Of a stretch of 45,935 bases of DNA, positions 39,132 through 44,168 are shown piece after piece (within the stretch, counting starts at the first letter, position 1; each line of letters begins with the position of its first letter). The notes under the pieces are model-generated. The model ran no database searches. It saw nothing but the letters and a program-made list of their open reading frames with translations, and was not told the DNA's origin. The DNA is taken from positions 951,416 through 997,350 of the forward strand of contig CP070751.1 of the NCBI GenBank assembly GCA_020348445.1, in the 5' to 3' direction. Position numbers and translations under genes: made by a program. The DNA is from Thermoplasmata archaeon (GTDB lineage: Archaea; Thermoplasmatota; Thermoplasmata; GCA-020350865).

Positions 39132-39244
39132 CAACTTTGATATACAATCCATTGTATTTAAACCTTACTAAAATTAATGTGCACTTTAACTTTAGTATTA
39201 CCAAAATTAAAGTCAATAATAGTTTTGGTAATGATGAAATAGTA

Positions 39245-39360
39245 AAGATAGGGCTAGGAGTGTGGGGAATTTGGTGGGATGGGAGAGAACCAGGGGAGTC
39301 GGGAGGATGTTTCGGGCCAGGAAAGGGGGAGGAAGGATGGGATGAGGGGATGCGGTATCT
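39245..39360 (+). repeat. G-rich dispersed repeat, copy F
   Basis: Same core as copy A. Confidence 0.92.
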
Positions 39361-39402
39361 CTTTCTTCCGTTCCTGCACTGGGCTACACCCCTTGCTTAG
39401 AG

Positions 39403-39526
39403 CTGATCGATTACAATACTTCCTGGGGGAGAAATCCCCCTGAACCGCAGGAAATCGCAGATTTCCGAGGGGCAGTGCTCATCTTTGATGAGCATGAGTC
39501 CCCCCTTTTCTTTTTCATTTCTTGAG
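39403..39526 (+). ncRNA. Candidate structured RNA or DNA element S, copy 1
   Basis: Three hairpins: GGGGGA-GAAA-TCCCCC, GGAAATC-GCA-GATTTCC, GGGG..TGCTCATC-TTT-GATGAGCA..CCCC, then a T tract. Paralog at 44045-44168. Confidence 0.55.
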
Positions 39527-39664
39527 TGGCTGTCCAAATAAGATTGTTACTATACAGAGGGAGTGCGGAGGGGTAAAGATATGGTTGTCCTTACCTTCCA
39601 TCCCTTCTCTAGGCCATGCCCTTTGCTCGGGGCGGGGAAAAATTTGTAAGCTCTATATTTAGAA

Positions 39665-39952
39665 TTAGATATCGGGTAAAAGTCTCGCACCGTGAACGAT
39701 GGCGACTATCTCGATGGCCTCCTCCTTAATTCTGTAAACTATCCGATAATTTTGAAATATTCTTTCCCTTAAATCATCCCGCTGATATTCCGGAACCACT
39801 CGCCCAGCTTTAGGAAAACCCGGTATCTTTTCGATCAAAGTTACGATTCGTTGTGCAAAAAGCCGCGCGTAATGCTCCGAATCAAGAGCAATGTAGTTGC
39901 ATATTTCCTCAAGATCCGCAGCTGCTCTGGGAGACCAGATCAGCTTAACCAT
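39665..39952 (-). CDS. parE: RelE/ParE family toxin
   Basis: LIWSPRAAADLEEICNYIALDS...FPKAGRVVPE...RERIFQNYRIVYRI...IVAIVHGAR. Confidence 0.92.
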   Translation of the reverse strand: MVKLIWSPRAAADLEEICNYIALDSEHYARLFAQRIVTLIEKIPGFPKAGRVVPEYQRDDLRERIFQNYRIVYRIKEEAIEIVAIVHGARLLPDI

Positions 39953-40125
39953 TTTTTCAATCGCTCCTTGGCCTCCTCATGGGAAATGCCCTTCCCTTCA
40001 TCTAGTTCCTTCAGACCCTTGTCCACCTTTTGTCTAAAATAAAGTTCGGCCATAATATCAGCTATACTGGCATCGTCCGGCATCTGTTGAATCATGGCTA
40101 TTACATTTTCTTTTAGATTTTGCAT
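39940..40125 (-). CDS. Small antitoxin of the ParE-family toxin
   Basis: 61 aa MQNLKENVIAMIQQMPDD...GKGISHEEAKERLKKWLS; GGAGG SD before ATG 40125; overlaps the toxin start. Confidence 0.85.
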   Translation of the reverse strand: MQNLKENVIAMIQQMPDDASIADIMAELYFRQKVDKGLKELDEGKGISHEEAKERLKKWLS

Positions 40126-40260
40126 GATCAAGGCCTCCATATGGGAATTTTTAGTATTTGAGGTACTATTATTCAATTTATATTTAAGTGTTGCTCTATT
40201 TTTATGTTTACCCGAAAGATCATCGTTCAATCTGGTCATAATAAGCACCATTATTACACG

Positions 40261-40289
40261 TGTTACATACCATTGTAACATTTGTAACA
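40261..40289. promoter_or_regulatory. TGTTACA/TGTAACA inverted and direct half-sites
   Basis: TGTTACA 40261, TGTAACA 40274, TGTAACA 40283; about 135 bp upstream of the antitoxin start. Confidence 0.4.
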
Positions 40290-40370
40290 TTAGGCTTTTG
40301 GGGTATATTAATCCTAATTTGGGGGGAGAATGTAAGTATTTGGATCATGGGTATGGTTTTTGGCATCCAT

Positions 40371-40527
40371 CACTCGTATTTGGCATACCATATGAGGGAG
40401 TTAACGCTCGTAATTGGCATGCCATCTAACGCTCGCAGTTGGCACCTAATTCAGGGTTTACCTCTCGTATTTGGCATGCCATCTGCGGGAGTTAGCGCTC
40501 GTAATTGGCATGCCAACTGTGAGAGTT
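40371..40527. repeat. Cluster of 5 GGCATGCC-family imperfect palindromes (REP/BIME-like)
   Basis: Units at about 40371, 40403, 40428, 40462 and 40494. Consensus AAC(G/T)CTCGTA(A/T)TTGGC-AT-GCCA..TG.G.GAGTT. Confidence 0.85.
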
Positions 40528-40670
40528 GTGAAGGTGAGTTGTGATTGGTGTTTTTTGAGGACTGGCTGTGGTTTTAAACGAGGCTGGAAAATGGGATTTT
40601 TTGGGAAGGCAGATGGGGTAGGTGGGCTGAGAATTTATGGATTTTTGCCATCTGCGAGAGGTGGCTTGGG

Positions 40671-40800
40671 TTTTGGGGCCCAAAATGGGGGCTAGGAGTA
40701 TGGGGAATTTGGTGGGATGTTAGAAAACCAGGGGAGTCGGGAGGATGTTTCGGGGGTAGGAAAGGGGGGGAGGAGAATGGGTGTGGGGATGCGGCAATCC
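40671..40800 (+). repeat. G-rich dispersed repeat, copy G
   Basis: Same core; ends at the base before the stop codon of the WEVPL gene at 40801. Confidence 0.92.
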
Positions 40801-43800
40801 TTACAATGGAACTTCCCAGGTGCACTCTTCTTTTGCGTGGATATAGTATCCTTTTCCAGGTTCAAAATAATCTGAAGGACCTAGTTTTATCCATTTTTGT
40901 TTTGCGGCATTGTATGTGAGGATTGCATCCACATGAGTGCCGAAGATAAGGTTGTTCAATCCTTCTGTTCTATTGTGGTTTGTTAGGGAGGGGTAACCAA
41001 CCATGTTCCAGCCTTTGTAAATTTGGATAGTCTGGATAACTGATGGTTGGGTGCCATTATAGAGGAAAATTGTGTCTCCTGGATGGGTGATGTGAATCCA
41101 GAAGCTCTGGGTTTCGTTTATCTCAAATAGGTCGTTTCCGTAAGGTTTGCCAACCCTATTGTGTTTCCAGGGATCGTTTGGATCTGTTGGATCATACCAT
41201 TGGACTGCATCATAATAGCCATCGATCATCTCAAGGACTTTTATCAAGTTTTGATTAATTTGGATAAAGGGGATTGAGATCAGGTTCCATCCTTGTTTTA
41301 AGAGGGTGTAATTTTCTAAGGATTGGTAGATGTAGGGTTCCATGAGAGGATAATTATCTACTGAATCTGAATCAATCGAGTAATTTGTATCTCCAATACC
41401 ATCACTGCCGGGTATATCCTGATTAGGACCTTTAAATTTGTCAACACCGACATAATTCGACCAGTAATTTCCTCCTAAAGGATACCCGTTGTCCCATTGG
41501 TTAGCGTTGTTTGTATAATCATAGGCTTGTACTGTATTATTTATAAAATTATTGTGATAAATAAGGTTGTTCGATGGTATTGACATCCCGATCCCAAAGA
41601 AGTTGTTTGTAACATTATTGACGGAGATTGTATTGTCAAATGAATCATCGAGCGAGATACCATAATAATTATTTGAAACAATATTTTCTTTGAAATTATT
41701 TTCATTGGATTCTTCATCGATAAAGATTCCATTATTGTTGAAGAAGGCGGTATTATTACTAATATTATTTCCTTTGGACCAACCTAGACATATTCCGTAA
41801 TCATTATTTGAGACATTATTTTGGATGATGGTATTATTCGTAGAAAATCCAAGTTCAATTCCACAAGAACTATAATTGCAATTCTGCTGCTCAATCTTTA
41901 CATTTGAGCAGTTGGCAAGTATGATTTCCCCCGCTCCAAACGGCACTATTCCTCCTGTTTGGTTCTTCAAGTAGTAAACTGGCTTGCTGTTTACAGTATT
42001 TGAAGTATCGATATTGTGCGTGTTCCAATGCTCAACGGTAGGGCCCCAAATAAATATCCCATCATTTGTCATTGTATTGTTTGAGACGATGATCTCCTTT
42101 GAATATGCAAGATGGACACCCATTCCATCATTTGAAGAGATATTATTGCTTTTTATAGTGTTGTTTGACGAAATAAGAAAGATGCCATCCTCTTTATTCG
42201 AATATACATTGTTTTTTGAAATATTGTTGTTATTTGATGCAAAACCAAGATAAATACCTTTTTCAGTATTTGAATATACGTTGTTGCCCAATATGGTGTT
42301 ATTCGTAGATGTAATAACCTCGATACCTACAATATCATTCAAATAAACATTATTGTTCATTATTTTATTATTTGATGATAAGTAAAGATATAGACCATCT
42401 GCTTCGTTCAAATAAGCATTGTTATTAGTGATTGAATTGTTTGATGAAGAGTAAAGATCGATGCCAATCCAGTTATCTGTAACATTATTGTTTGTTATGT
42501 TGTTATTTGATGAGGAGCTTAAAGAAATGGCCTTAATATTGGACGAGAAATTATTGTTATTTATACGGTTGTATGATGATCCCTCAAGCATAACAGCCCA
42601 TGAGCGTGTTACAAAATTCGATACATTATTGTTTGTTATAGAATTATTGGTTGAAGAAAAAAGGGTGATGCTATCTGGATTTTGTGAAAAATAGTTATTA
42701 TTAATAATATTATTTGATGATGAATCCAGATAAATACCATCTGCATCATTTGAAATGAAATCATTTTCATCTATGCTGTTATTCAAAGATTCAAAAAGAA
42801 ATACACCGTAGTCATTGTCAGTAACATTGTTACCAGTAATATCGTTATCATGTGCAGTGTCCAGATAAATACCAGGATTATTGTTCGATACATCGTTTGA
42901 GGATATATTGTTCTTGTGGGAATTGTCAAGGTATATCCCGTTTTCAGTACTAAAAGAGACCAGATTGTCCCTAACATTGTTGAAATCAGATAGATCCAGA
43001 TGTATACCATGATAACAATGAGAAAGGTTATTGCCAGTGACTTGATTTTCATTGGAATAGTAAAGATAGACACCGCGATCCCAGATGGATGAAATGTTGT
43101 TGTGTTTGACCGTGTTATTTCTCGAATATGATACACAGATTCCGTCACCGTTATTCCATCCGATGTTTTTGAATACCGTATTATCATTTGAGTACAACAA
43201 GTAAAATCCTATGTCGCTATTTGTAGCATTGTTCTCAGTAATCGTATTATTGTTCGAGTTTCTGATGGAAAAACCAAAGTCCCAATTATCCACGGCATTG
43301 TTGCTAAAAAGAGTGCTTCTATTTGAGTAATATAATAGGAAACCGCGAGAATTATCTGTTGCAATGTTGTCTGTGATTCTGCATTGTTCCACTGAATCAA
43401 GATCTATACCTGCGTCGTACCAGTTTACTCCGCTGTGTGTAACAGTGAATCCACTGATGTTCACCCAGTTAGAGGATACGTATATCACATCATTGGCCCA
43501 TCCACCATCCACAATCGTTGTGTTCTTGTTCTCACCCGTCAAGGTCAGGATTTTGTTCACAATAACATTCTCTATGTACGTCCCGTTGTAGACAAAGATC
43601 GTATCCCCATCTATAGCCGCATTTATCGCATCCTGAATACTCGTGAAATCCTCGGGGGGATTCCCGGGTCCGGAACCAGGTACATCATCAACATACCAAG
43701 TAGTAGGGGCTTCTACAACTTGTGCAATCTCGATAATAATGACAATTAAGCCCAACATCATAGCCAAACTTACCCAAATTGCGACTATCTTATTGTTCAT
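40801..43800 (-). CDS. Secreted right-handed beta-helix (NosD/CASH-like) protein with C-terminal WEVPL module
   Basis: TWYVDDVPGSGPGNPPEDFTSIQDAINAA start, many GI.L..S.NN.I..N repeats, WDNGYPLGGNYWS, ends ECTWEVPL. Confidence 0.92.
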   Translation of the reverse strand: MNNKIVAIWVSLAMMLGLIVIIIEIAQVVEAPTTWYVDDVPGSGPGNPPEDFTSIQDAINAAIDGDTIFVYNGTYIENVIVNKILTLTGENKNTTIVDGGWANDVIYVSSNWVNISGFTVTHSGVNWYDAGIDLDSVEQCRITDNIATDNSRGFLLYYSNRSTLFSNNAVDNWDFGFSIRNSNNNTITENNATNSDIGFYLLYSNDNTVFKNIGWNNGDGICVSYSRNNTVKHNNISSIWDRGVYLYYSNENQVTGNNLSHCYHGIHLDLSDFNNVRDNLVSFSTENGIYLDNSHKNNISSNDVSNNNPGIYLDTAHDNDITGNNVTDNDYGVFLFESLNNSIDENDFISNDADGIYLDSSSNNIINNNYFSQNPDSITLFSSTNNSITNNNVSNFVTRSWAVMLEGSSYNRINNNNFSSNIKAISLSSSSNNNITNNNVTDNWIGIDLYSSSNNSITNNNAYLNEADGLYLYLSSNNKIMNNNVYLNDIVGIEVITSTNNTILGNNVYSNTEKGIYLGFASNNNNISKNNVYSNKEDGIFLISSNNTIKSNNISSNDGMGVHLAYSKEIIVSNNTMTNDGIFIWGPTVEHWNTHNIDTSNTVNSKPVYYLKNQTGGIVPFGAGEIILANCSNVKIEQQNCNYSSCGIELGFSTNNTIIQNNVSNNDYGICLGWSKGNNISNNTAFFNNNGIFIDEESNENNFKENIVSNNYYGISLDDSFDNTISVNNVTNNFFGIGMSIPSNNLIYHNNFINNTVQAYDYTNNANQWDNGYPLGGNYWSNYVGVDKFKGPNQDIPGSDGIGDTNYSIDSDSVDNYPLMEPYIYQSLENYTLLKQGWNLISIPFIQINQNLIKVLEMIDGYYDAVQWYDPTDPNDPWKHNRVGKPYGNDLFEINETQSFWIHITHPGDTIFLYNGTQPSVIQTIQIYKGWNMVGYPSLTNHNRTEGLNNLIFGTHVDAILTYNAAKQKWIKLGPSDYFEPGKGYYIHAKEECTWEVPL

Positions 43801-43880
43801 CAGAAAAAGTTATCAATTTCACGGGATAAATACCTTCCGCTCTATCCTCGAAAGTGGTTGGTAGGGATTCGCTGATTGGT

Positions 43881-44004
43881 TCGACCCAAAATGGGGCTAA
43901 GAGTGTGGGGAATTTGGTGGAGGGTGAGAAAACCAGGGGAGTCGGGAGGATGGTTCGAGGGTAGGAAAGGGGGAGGAGGAGGGGTGTGGGGATGCGGCAT
44001 CCCT
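43881..44004 (+). repeat. G-rich dispersed repeat, copy H
   Basis: Same core, with terminal hairpins CCCA-AAA-TGGG and GGGATG-CGG-CATCCC. Confidence 0.92.
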
Positions 44005-44044
44005 ATCTTACGCTCCTGGTCTGGACGACGCCCCCAGCTCGGAC

Positions 44045-44168
44045 CTGATTGATTCCAATACTTCCTGGGGGAGAAATCCCCCTGAGCCGCAGGAAATCAT
44101 TGATTTCCGAGGGGTAATGCTCATGTTTAATGAGCATGTATCCCCCTTTTTCTTTTTCATTTCTAAGT
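44045..44168 (+). ncRNA. Candidate structured RNA or DNA element S, copy 2
   Basis: Same three hairpins as 39403-39526, with differences mostly in loops; ends on the ATPase stop codon. Confidence 0.55.

Follow-up and report, generated by a model that had tools for sequence, protein, structure and literature searches.

The stretch analysed here, referred to throughout as the window, comprises 45,935 nucleotides (nt) of a Thermoplasmata archaeon (assembly GCA_020348445.1, contig CP070751.1, positions 951,416 to 997,350; G000:C1:951416-997350) and is one entire contig of a scaffolded 5.16-Mb genome (G000) with a G+C content of 41.5%. The family of the host holds 5 species genomes and its order 6; the assembly contains 35,300 N, equal to 353 runs of 100, of which one was observed directly. 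Our subject is an intergenic element of three hairpins on the + strand, present in the window as copy 1 (39418-39522) and copy 2 (44060-44164), which a first-pass annotation of the DNA had proposed as a new structured RNA. Both copies lie in the right half of the window, which is an island of one- or two-gene cassettes parted by a co-oriented G-rich repeat (GR). The cassettes contain ParE with a partner, PIN with a partner, HEPN with a nucleotidyltransferase, an AbiEii-like pair, two AAA_14/DUF4143 ATPases, NosD-type beta-helix surface proteins, and cupins.

The GR measures about 112 nt, has a sharp right end (...GGGGATGCGG) and occurs 21 times in G000, in few clusters, with nine copies in the window (23582-45801) and the others at 1344716, 1391436-1399568, 1456464-1464492, 1592676, 1821798, 1876604 and 1919665. 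It is placed 3' of genes on either strand, with a T-run within 5-40 nt after many copies, and is also present in a second genome of the genus (G001). The module to its right is drawn from a small set: the 3' end of a NosD-type gene, TATTTTGAGATCGAGGG, ATTGTGGTGGGG..., or the three-hairpin unit. Between the ParE cassette and the next GR, a cluster of palindromes centred on GGCATGCC occupies positions 40371-40527.

All parts of the element were read on the + strand. In copy 1, the left border is formed by GR copy F (39244-39355), followed by a linker (39356-39424) that holds a small hairpin (GGGCTACACCC, around 39381-39391) and, 3' of it, GATTACAATAC, the degenerate counterpart of a TATA-like box found in paralogues. 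Hairpin 1 (GGGGGA-GAAA-TCCCCC, 39425-39440) precedes a 56-nt stretch (39444-39499), termed here the twin-hairpin insert, which contains CCGCA (39445-39449), hairpin 2 (39450-39466), GAGG (39467-39470) and most of hairpin 3 (39469-39502); its borders can be placed only to within about 2 nt, since there is a CC on either side of it. Hairpin 3 has an outer stem GGGGC/GTCCC, which is a hybrid of G residues from the insert paired with the C-run beyond it, and an inner stem GTGCTCATC/GATGAGCAT closed by a TTT loop. The C-run and the T-rich tract CCCCCCTTTTCTTTTTCATTTCTT (39500-39523) form a terminator-like end, followed by a tail, GAGTGGCTGTCCAAATAAGATTGTTACTATAC (39524-39555). Copy 2 is built alike, with GR copy H (43887-43997), linker (43998-44066), hairpin 1 (44067-44082), twin-hairpin insert (44086-44141; hairpin 2 at 44092-44108, hairpin 3 at 44111-44144) and C-run plus T-rich tract (44142-44164), the last bases of which overlap the stop codon (44163-44165, - strand) of a 428-aa AAA_14/DUF4143 gene; the tail is absent here, where the gene's 3' end begins.

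The two copies belong to a direct repeat (39339-39522 against 43981-44164, 84% identity), in which homology is unbroken from the GR to the T-run and then ends on both sides. Identity amounts to 83.5% in the GR, 74% over 54 nt of linker and 89.5% (94/105) in the three-hairpin core plus T-run, and falls to about 42-45% in the outer flanks, which corresponds to unrelated sequence. Both copies were located where the annotation had placed them, and on the + strand they fold with -46.1 and -43.1 kcal/mol (z = -3.6 each), with none of 200 shuffles as good. The differences it had listed were likewise reproduced: between the copies, hairpin 1 and the stem of hairpin 2 are invariant and the loop of hairpin 2 changes from GCA to ATT, while in hairpin 3 a C-G pair is replaced by U-A (a compensatory change), a G-U pair by A-U, and a single terminal pair is broken. 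Of the 27 pairs, 26 are preserved (P = 0.025). The loop bias that it had read from these changes does not hold for two copies, as the 11 differences fall on 5 paired and 6 unpaired positions (P = 0.46).

Contrary to the initial description, the element is not confined to two copies. A third was found in G000 by nhmmer and BLAST at 1400940-1400998 (- strand), with a 100-N scaffold gap inside its hairpin 3; this hairpin is identical to that of copy 2, and the 32-nt tail resembles that of copy 1. It neighbours a pair of open reading frames (ORFs) overlapping by 4 nt (L003:635-1335, G000 1400076-1400776), one for a DUF5678 protein and one for a retropepsin-like aspartyl protease, reminiscent of a two-gene cassette of toxin-antitoxin type. 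The fourth copy, in metagenome contig Ga0209536_100054980 (L134, positions 1370-1481), was detected solely via a looser hairpin 2 pattern in a metagenome scan. It is 82% identical to copy 1, scores 90.2 bits against a model of the element with zero non-canonical pairs, and folds into the same three hairpins (z = -3.5 on the + strand). Two short Logan contigs of a single run carry the same genes and, by arithmetic, both end inside the element, as a repeat predicts. Beyond the four copies, none was found in 151 genomes of the class, and the exact joint pattern of hairpins 1 and 2 gave 0 matches in the genome, metagenome and viral collections.

With L134 added, the bias towards unpaired positions becomes visible: among the three full copies, 6 of 54 paired columns of the hairpin region are variable vs 10 of 27 unpaired ones (Fisher P = 0.0085), and 16 of 31 columns vary in the flanks. 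The loop of hairpin 2 is occupied by three unrelated sequences (GCA, ATT and CTC), hairpin 1 of L134 has gained an A-U pair, and one G-U pair of hairpin 3 is A-U in L134. In hairpin 3, 96% of the cells are paired, with one compensatory pair and two G-U/A-U pairs. These data bear on the explanation by a neutral segmental duplication of intergenic DNA, in which ordinary terminator palindromes are conserved only through the youth of the copies. The small number of copies, homology that spans GR and linker, and minimal covariation within the unit are what it predicts. We nevertheless consider it very unlikely, given the excess of identity in the core over the adjoining linker (89.5% vs 74%), a homologue in another organism that keeps every pair at 82% identity, and the recurrence of the hairpin 2 motif, with covariation, in several Thermoplasmatota families. 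Two coding explanations were also discarded. Small + strand ORFs across the T-run differ in frame and end among the copies, and tblastn matches to a decayed AAA_14/DUF4143 3' end in the right flank of copies 1 and 3 were not above chance.

Hairpin 1 also occurs by itself: the 21-nt sequence CCAGGGGGAGAAATCCCCCTG is present in G000 at 1323846 (+) and 4635888 (-), without hairpins 2 and 3. In these empty paralogues (solo1 and solo2), hairpin 1 is followed by CTGA and then directly by (A)CCCCC and the T-run. Alignment with the filled copies gives a clean indel of 55-59 nt between CTGA and the C-run, with upstream module and tail aligning on both sides, the C-run and T-rich tract being present in all copies and the GAGTGGCTGTCCAAATAAGATTGTTACTATAC tail common to copy 3, L134 and the empty paralogues. 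As the host element thus exists without hairpins 2 and 3, the whole is composite, and hairpins 2 and 3 constitute a 56-nt insertion (or deletion). L134 represents the filled form. On its upstream side it has no GR; in its place stands the module of the empty paralogues, consisting of a small hairpin, CTCTAACCCC and an A/T-rich TATA-like box 17-20 nt 5' of hairpin 1. Aligned with the corresponding parts of solo1, solo2 and L134, the linkers in the window prove to be decayed remains of this module.

The L134 element follows a Fic/DOC gene at a distance of 110 nt and in the sense orientation, and solo1, likewise in sense, lies downstream of a VapBC-like pair. Since the ORFs downstream of L134 and solo1 are unrelated, the two are paralogous copies and not one locus in two states. 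Beside the GRs of G001, no empty host element was found; other modules stand there instead. The upstream-type module (GGGC...GCCC hairpin, TCTAACCCC or TTTAATCCC, A/T-rich TATA-like box) is found repeatedly in the genus, in some cases as tandem copies, namely at G000 1320641-1320757 (+) and 2344268-2344369 (-) and in contigs L143 and L146 (-). In L143 it precedes an ATG by about 33 nt and therefore looks like a shared promoter cassette; as such a hairpin-plus-TATA module stands before genes in the genus, the host element may be a tiny promoter-plus-terminator unit or a leader.

This composite anatomy counts against a free-standing small RNA gene, acting in trans or in cis as a regulatory small RNA, a riboswitch or a ribozyme, in which the three hairpins would work as one + strand unit. 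L134, which retains all three hairpins and every canonical pair, stems that vary less than loops, a U-tract after the hairpins, and the TATA-like box in paralogues and L134 are all in keeping with such a gene. It is unlikely all the same, as the host element also occurs with hairpins 2 and 3 missing, both window copies have a degenerate promoter-like box, and only four copies are known. Loops and junctions vary freely, and no conserved unpaired nucleotides hint at a ligand pocket or a catalytic core. Neither the GNRA loop nor the alternative helix that the annotation had cited is conserved: GAAA of hairpin 1 is AGAA in L134, and the TTCCTG/CAGGAA pairing, which would have competed with hairpin 2, is matched neither by L134, which has GCCCAG, nor by the empty paralogues, which have GTCCAG. 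Of the proposed new structured RNA, what stands is a real, conserved, structured non-coding unit, and what does not is its unity. A composite repeat into which a twin hairpin has been set as an insertional module is the more fitting description.

The conserved part of the insert leads beyond the element. A model built from the two window copies gave weak matches in other Thermoplasmata families, all consisting of hairpin 2 plus its flanks. We defined the family as CCGCA, RGAAANC, a 3-nt loop, GNTTTCY and GAGG, with the 7-bp stem fully paired, a pattern to which both window copies and L134 have 0 mismatches. Searched as CCGCARGAAANCNNNGNTTTCYGAGG with up to 2 mismatches, it returned 29 matches in 17 of the 151 class genomes and 0 in a reversed control; a shorter exact form gave 9 matches in 401 class genomes and 0 in the control. 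Among 185,579 species genomes, where about 1 match is expected by chance according to our own estimate, the exact pattern was found 12 times, with 6 matches in Thermoplasmatota metagenome-assembled genomes (MAGs), one of them named Candidatus Proteinoplasmatales SG8-5, and 6 scattered lone matches in unrelated bacteria. Viral contigs yielded 0 matches to the exact pattern. Judged from these searches, hairpin 2 and its flanks form a Thermoplasmatota-restricted motif.

In 27 aligned instances, pairing in the stem of hairpin 2 amounts to 98.4%, with two-sided changes at 6 of the 7 pairs; none of 500 shuffles reached its covariation score, and slid controls were paired in 28-56% of cells. An outer helix beyond hairpin 2 covaries in a subset of instances. 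The two closing pairs comprise 16 G-U, 7 A-U and 0 A-C combinations, counted across the aligned instances and gathered with a search pattern that penalised G-U and A-C alike. This asymmetry points to selection on a folded single strand, which in the window is the + strand and would most simply be RNA. The earlier proposal of a + strand RNA is thereby supported as regards the strand, + being the better candidate for the functional one; no promoter is conserved in the window copies.

The complementary possibility, that the - strand is functional and serves as a stabiliser in the 3' untranslated region (UTR) or as a terminator of cassette genes, takes its appeal from position. All three genomic copies lie 0-165 nt past the stop of a - strand or, for copy 3, likewise oppositely oriented gene (ParE, AAA_14 and the aspartyl-protease-like ORF), and the - strand also folds, less well than the + strand in copies 1 and 2 (z = -2.5 and -2.7) and with z = -4.0 in L134. 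On this strand, however, no T-run follows the hairpins, ParE has a T5 run of its own before the element, the G-U pairs would turn into A-C mismatches, and the elements of L134 and solo1 are sense to their upstream genes via the + strand, so that we regard it as highly improbable. The antisense arrangement with neighbouring genes that had been described applies to the three GR-joined copies and not to L134 and one empty paralogue, which stand in sense downstream of genes.

Many members of the hairpin 2 family adjoin a tRNA gene of the opposite strand, on the downstream side in the case of tRNA-Trp and tRNA-Tyr and on the upstream side in that of tRNA-Leu, tRNA-Gly and tRNA-Ile, where an extra copy of the tRNA's end is their immediate neighbour; several instances lie at contig ends. 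In two genomes of family f10 (L097:1440-1590 and L098:1439-1590), the first 36 nt of tRNA-Ile are present once more upstream of the tRNA-Ile gene, and this additional copy is split in its D-loop region by a twin hairpin of 52-54 nt. Read in the sense of the motif, the hairpin begins at CC|GCAG and has CC after it. A GG, which is CC on the opposite strand, is thus repeated at both borders, and the borders of the window insert, CC...CC, are the same. A further member is found within a predicted tRNA (L103:397-512, genome G067; ARAGORN with introns allowed), the 42-nt intron of which consists largely of a hairpin 2-type hairpin with the loop TGTAAG, the complement of the CTTACA that immediately precedes the intron. 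On our own reading of the sequence CTTACA would be the anticodon loop, and ARAGORN calls the gene tRNA-Ser(tga). Together with the filled and empty paralogues, these cases, beside tRNA genes and duplicated tRNA ends, in a predicted tRNA intron and in a split tRNA fragment, show that family members behave as insertional modules.

Two other arrangements were noted. In L088:1440-1620 (G121) and L108 (G067), three tandem 53-nt units, each made up of a hairpin 2-type hairpin and a second hairpin, begin right where an opposite-strand tRNA-Gly has its 5' end. A separate repeat in G002, of the same genus as G000, combines a hairpin 2-type GGAAAC...GTTTCC with two more hairpins between 12-nt inverted ends (GAACCACTGGTC/GACCAGTGGTTC), and occurs three times, at L109:1430-1570 (-), L100:43-230 (+) and L084:1-110 (+), two of which are at or near contig ends. 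The window contains no tRNA gene, its copies adjoin neither a tRNA nor a copy of a tRNA end, and the unit has no meaningful 10-mer in common with any of 69 predicted tRNA genes. G000 itself has hairpin modules beside tRNA genes, of the GTTCGAGCTTAAG type; they resemble in layout the tRNA-linked hairpin 2 family members of other genomes and were rejected as kin of hairpin 2, being a different sequence family. From these modules the window copies differ in having no tRNA-end copy and in being joined to a GR instead.

The element was then compared with known classes. As the annotation had stated, no RNA family is recognised: Rfam 15 gave 0 matches in the whole window at gathering thresholds, the best scores in 39200-39700 were 13-16 bits against thresholds of 38-85, and a related tRNA-linked module had no match at E <= 1. 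By inspection, a K-turn was rejected on the conserved loop, GCA opposite GA without tandem GA; box C/D and H/ACA did not fit, UGAUGA being present in copy 1 only; and the staggered bulges of a bulge-helix-bulge motif were not seen. The element was also rejected as a terminus of a resident insertion sequence (IS), a match to an IS end being a condition under which the original proposal was to be abandoned, on the flanks of two of the five matches to Y1 transposases in G000. These two are identical IS200-type copies (2860419-2860769 and 3339079-3339429, identical over 661 nt, one abutting a scaffold gap); each of their subterminal hairpins is preceded by AATGAATAC, and these AATGAATAC-plus-hairpin ends of IS200/IS605 type are unrelated to hairpins 1-3. 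The sole match to a TnpB-type domain (Cas12f1-like_TNB) is weak and far from the element.

Repetitive extragenic palindromes (REPs) and the bacterial interspersed mosaic elements (BIMEs) that they form are bacterial extragenic palindromes moved by RAYT, an IS200-like Y1 transposase. The present element is similar to them in its short imperfect palindromes with conserved flanks, in intergenic mosaic clusters mostly at the 3' ends of genes, in strand-specific features, and in potential secondary roles as terminator or RNA stabiliser. It differs in being archaeal, in having 1-5 copies per genome (3 filled and 2 empty in the 5.16 Mb of G000), in its conserved internal loop and A-rich stem, and in the linkage of the hairpin 2 family elsewhere to tRNA genes and a tRNA intron; no link to RAYT was found, one 342-aa ORF giving a weak Y1-like match. 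Features of miniature inverted-repeat transposable elements (MITEs) were not seen either, the window copies having no terminal inverted repeats and just CC dinucleotides flanking the insert. Disrupted tRNA genes of archaea and the transposed tRNA introns of Thermoproteales are the subject of a review (PMC4090602). The likeness to the hairpin 2 family lies in short structured inserts that recur at more than one tRNA position and gene. The window copies differ in that no bulge-helix-bulge can be drawn at their borders.

Archaeal oligo-T and bacterial intrinsic terminators also resemble the element, in which hairpin 1 or hairpin 3's outer stem supplies the G+C-rich hairpin ahead of a T-rich tract, and the outer stem of hairpin 3 is indeed followed on the + strand by C6 and T4CT5; a simple terminator scan did not list the element, because hairpin 3 has an internal loop. 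The differences are that there are three hairpins, one with a conserved sequence, that the conservation exceeds the needs of a terminator, and that the window copies face the 3' ends of opposite-strand genes. Both flanking genes in the window are on the - strand, so that a position downstream of a co-oriented gene is found for solo1 and L134 and not there.

The integron attC site is likewise a folded element on the 3' side of the cassettes of a co-oriented array in which toxin-antitoxin genes abound. A related explanation is a substrate for recombination at the DNA level only, in which the hairpins would fold in single-stranded DNA, as in attC or REP, for the capture or shuffling of cassettes at the GR. 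The genomic copies lie exactly between a GR and the 3' end of a cassette gene in such arrays, and strand-specific tolerance of G-T pairs would also be expected of single-stranded DNA hairpins. We consider this quite unlikely. Only 2-3 of the 21 GR junctions carry the unit, and L134 and the empty paralogues, outside such arrays, have no GR; neither an integrase nor R''/L''-L'/R' boxes were seen in the sequence, and the 23 largest ORFs in 20956-45449 contain no recombinase (Pfam; 19 matched families, 4 nothing).

Our preferred interpretation is that the element is a nested, repeat-borne non-coding module, in which a hairpin-terminator host element carries an insertional twin hairpin of a Thermoplasmatota family; we assign it a probability of roughly 0.5. 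The host is an intergenic element of about 200 nt, consisting of an upstream small hairpin with TATA-like box, hairpin 1, the C-run with oligo-T, and a short tail; it is found beside toxin-antitoxin and defence-type genes, and hairpin 1 with the T-run resembles an archaeal + strand terminator or a short transcription unit. The 56-nt twin hairpin sits between hairpin 1 and the C-run, its hairpin 2 comprising CCGCA, a 7-bp A-rich stem, a free 3-nt loop and GAGG, closed by the GCA/GA internal loop and often by an outer covarying helix. The composite may have arisen once and then been copied at least three times in G000, joined to the right end of the GR. In the window, + strand transcription would end at the U-tract, immediately ahead of the points where the convergent ParE and AAA_14 genes have their 3' ends, and the T-run probably ends + transcripts that would otherwise run antisense into them. 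The folded strand is probably RNA rather than single-stranded DNA, and the invariant parts of hairpin 2 (flanks, GCA/GA loop and A-tract) may be the recognition site of a putative protein that processes or propagates it.

Several observations weigh against this interpretation. The empty copies may have lost the segment by deletion, in which case no insertion took place. Covariation inside the three-hairpin unit is limited to one pair, a hairpin 3 family is not demonstrated beyond the four copies, and the fold energy of L134 gives no strand preference (z = -3.5 on + vs -4.0 on -). The TATA-like box is degenerate in the very copies under study, and from the spacing in the paralogues transcription would start near or inside hairpin 1. 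The family alignment was gathered with a pattern derived from the window's own hairpin, so that the independent support consists of the 27 further matches, with 0 in reversed controls, plus the covariation; and because several instances come from related genomes, the family counts overstate the number of independent events, which is below 16 for the G-U pairs.

A more far-reaching version, which we put forward tentatively as possible yet doubtful, takes the twin hairpin as an undescribed gene-less mobile element of about 55 nt. It would insert at CC into tRNA genes, introns and terminator-like elements via a single-stranded intermediate of RNA or DNA, with a putative protein, encoded by the host or by the element, recognising it, and the window would show one such element caught in a small transcription unit and amplified along the cassette array.

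Small structured repeats are well described in bacteria, as REP, BIME and MITEs, and poorly in archaea. If the element proved to be only a terminator, the finding would be ordinary. What the analysis defines is a Thermoplasmatota-restricted hairpin motif that covaries, is constrained on one strand and exists in filled and empty states, and which can now be searched for directly. This motif ties together three peculiarities of these genomes that would otherwise stand apart: hairpin modules at tRNA genes, an intron-borne hairpin, and the hairpin clusters in arrays of toxin-antitoxin and defence cassettes. Were the module mobile or bound by a protein, it would offer a route to studying how archaeal tRNA genes are interrupted and how cassette islands are built. 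The main value of the element thus lies in the Thermoplasmatota-wide hairpin family that it reveals.

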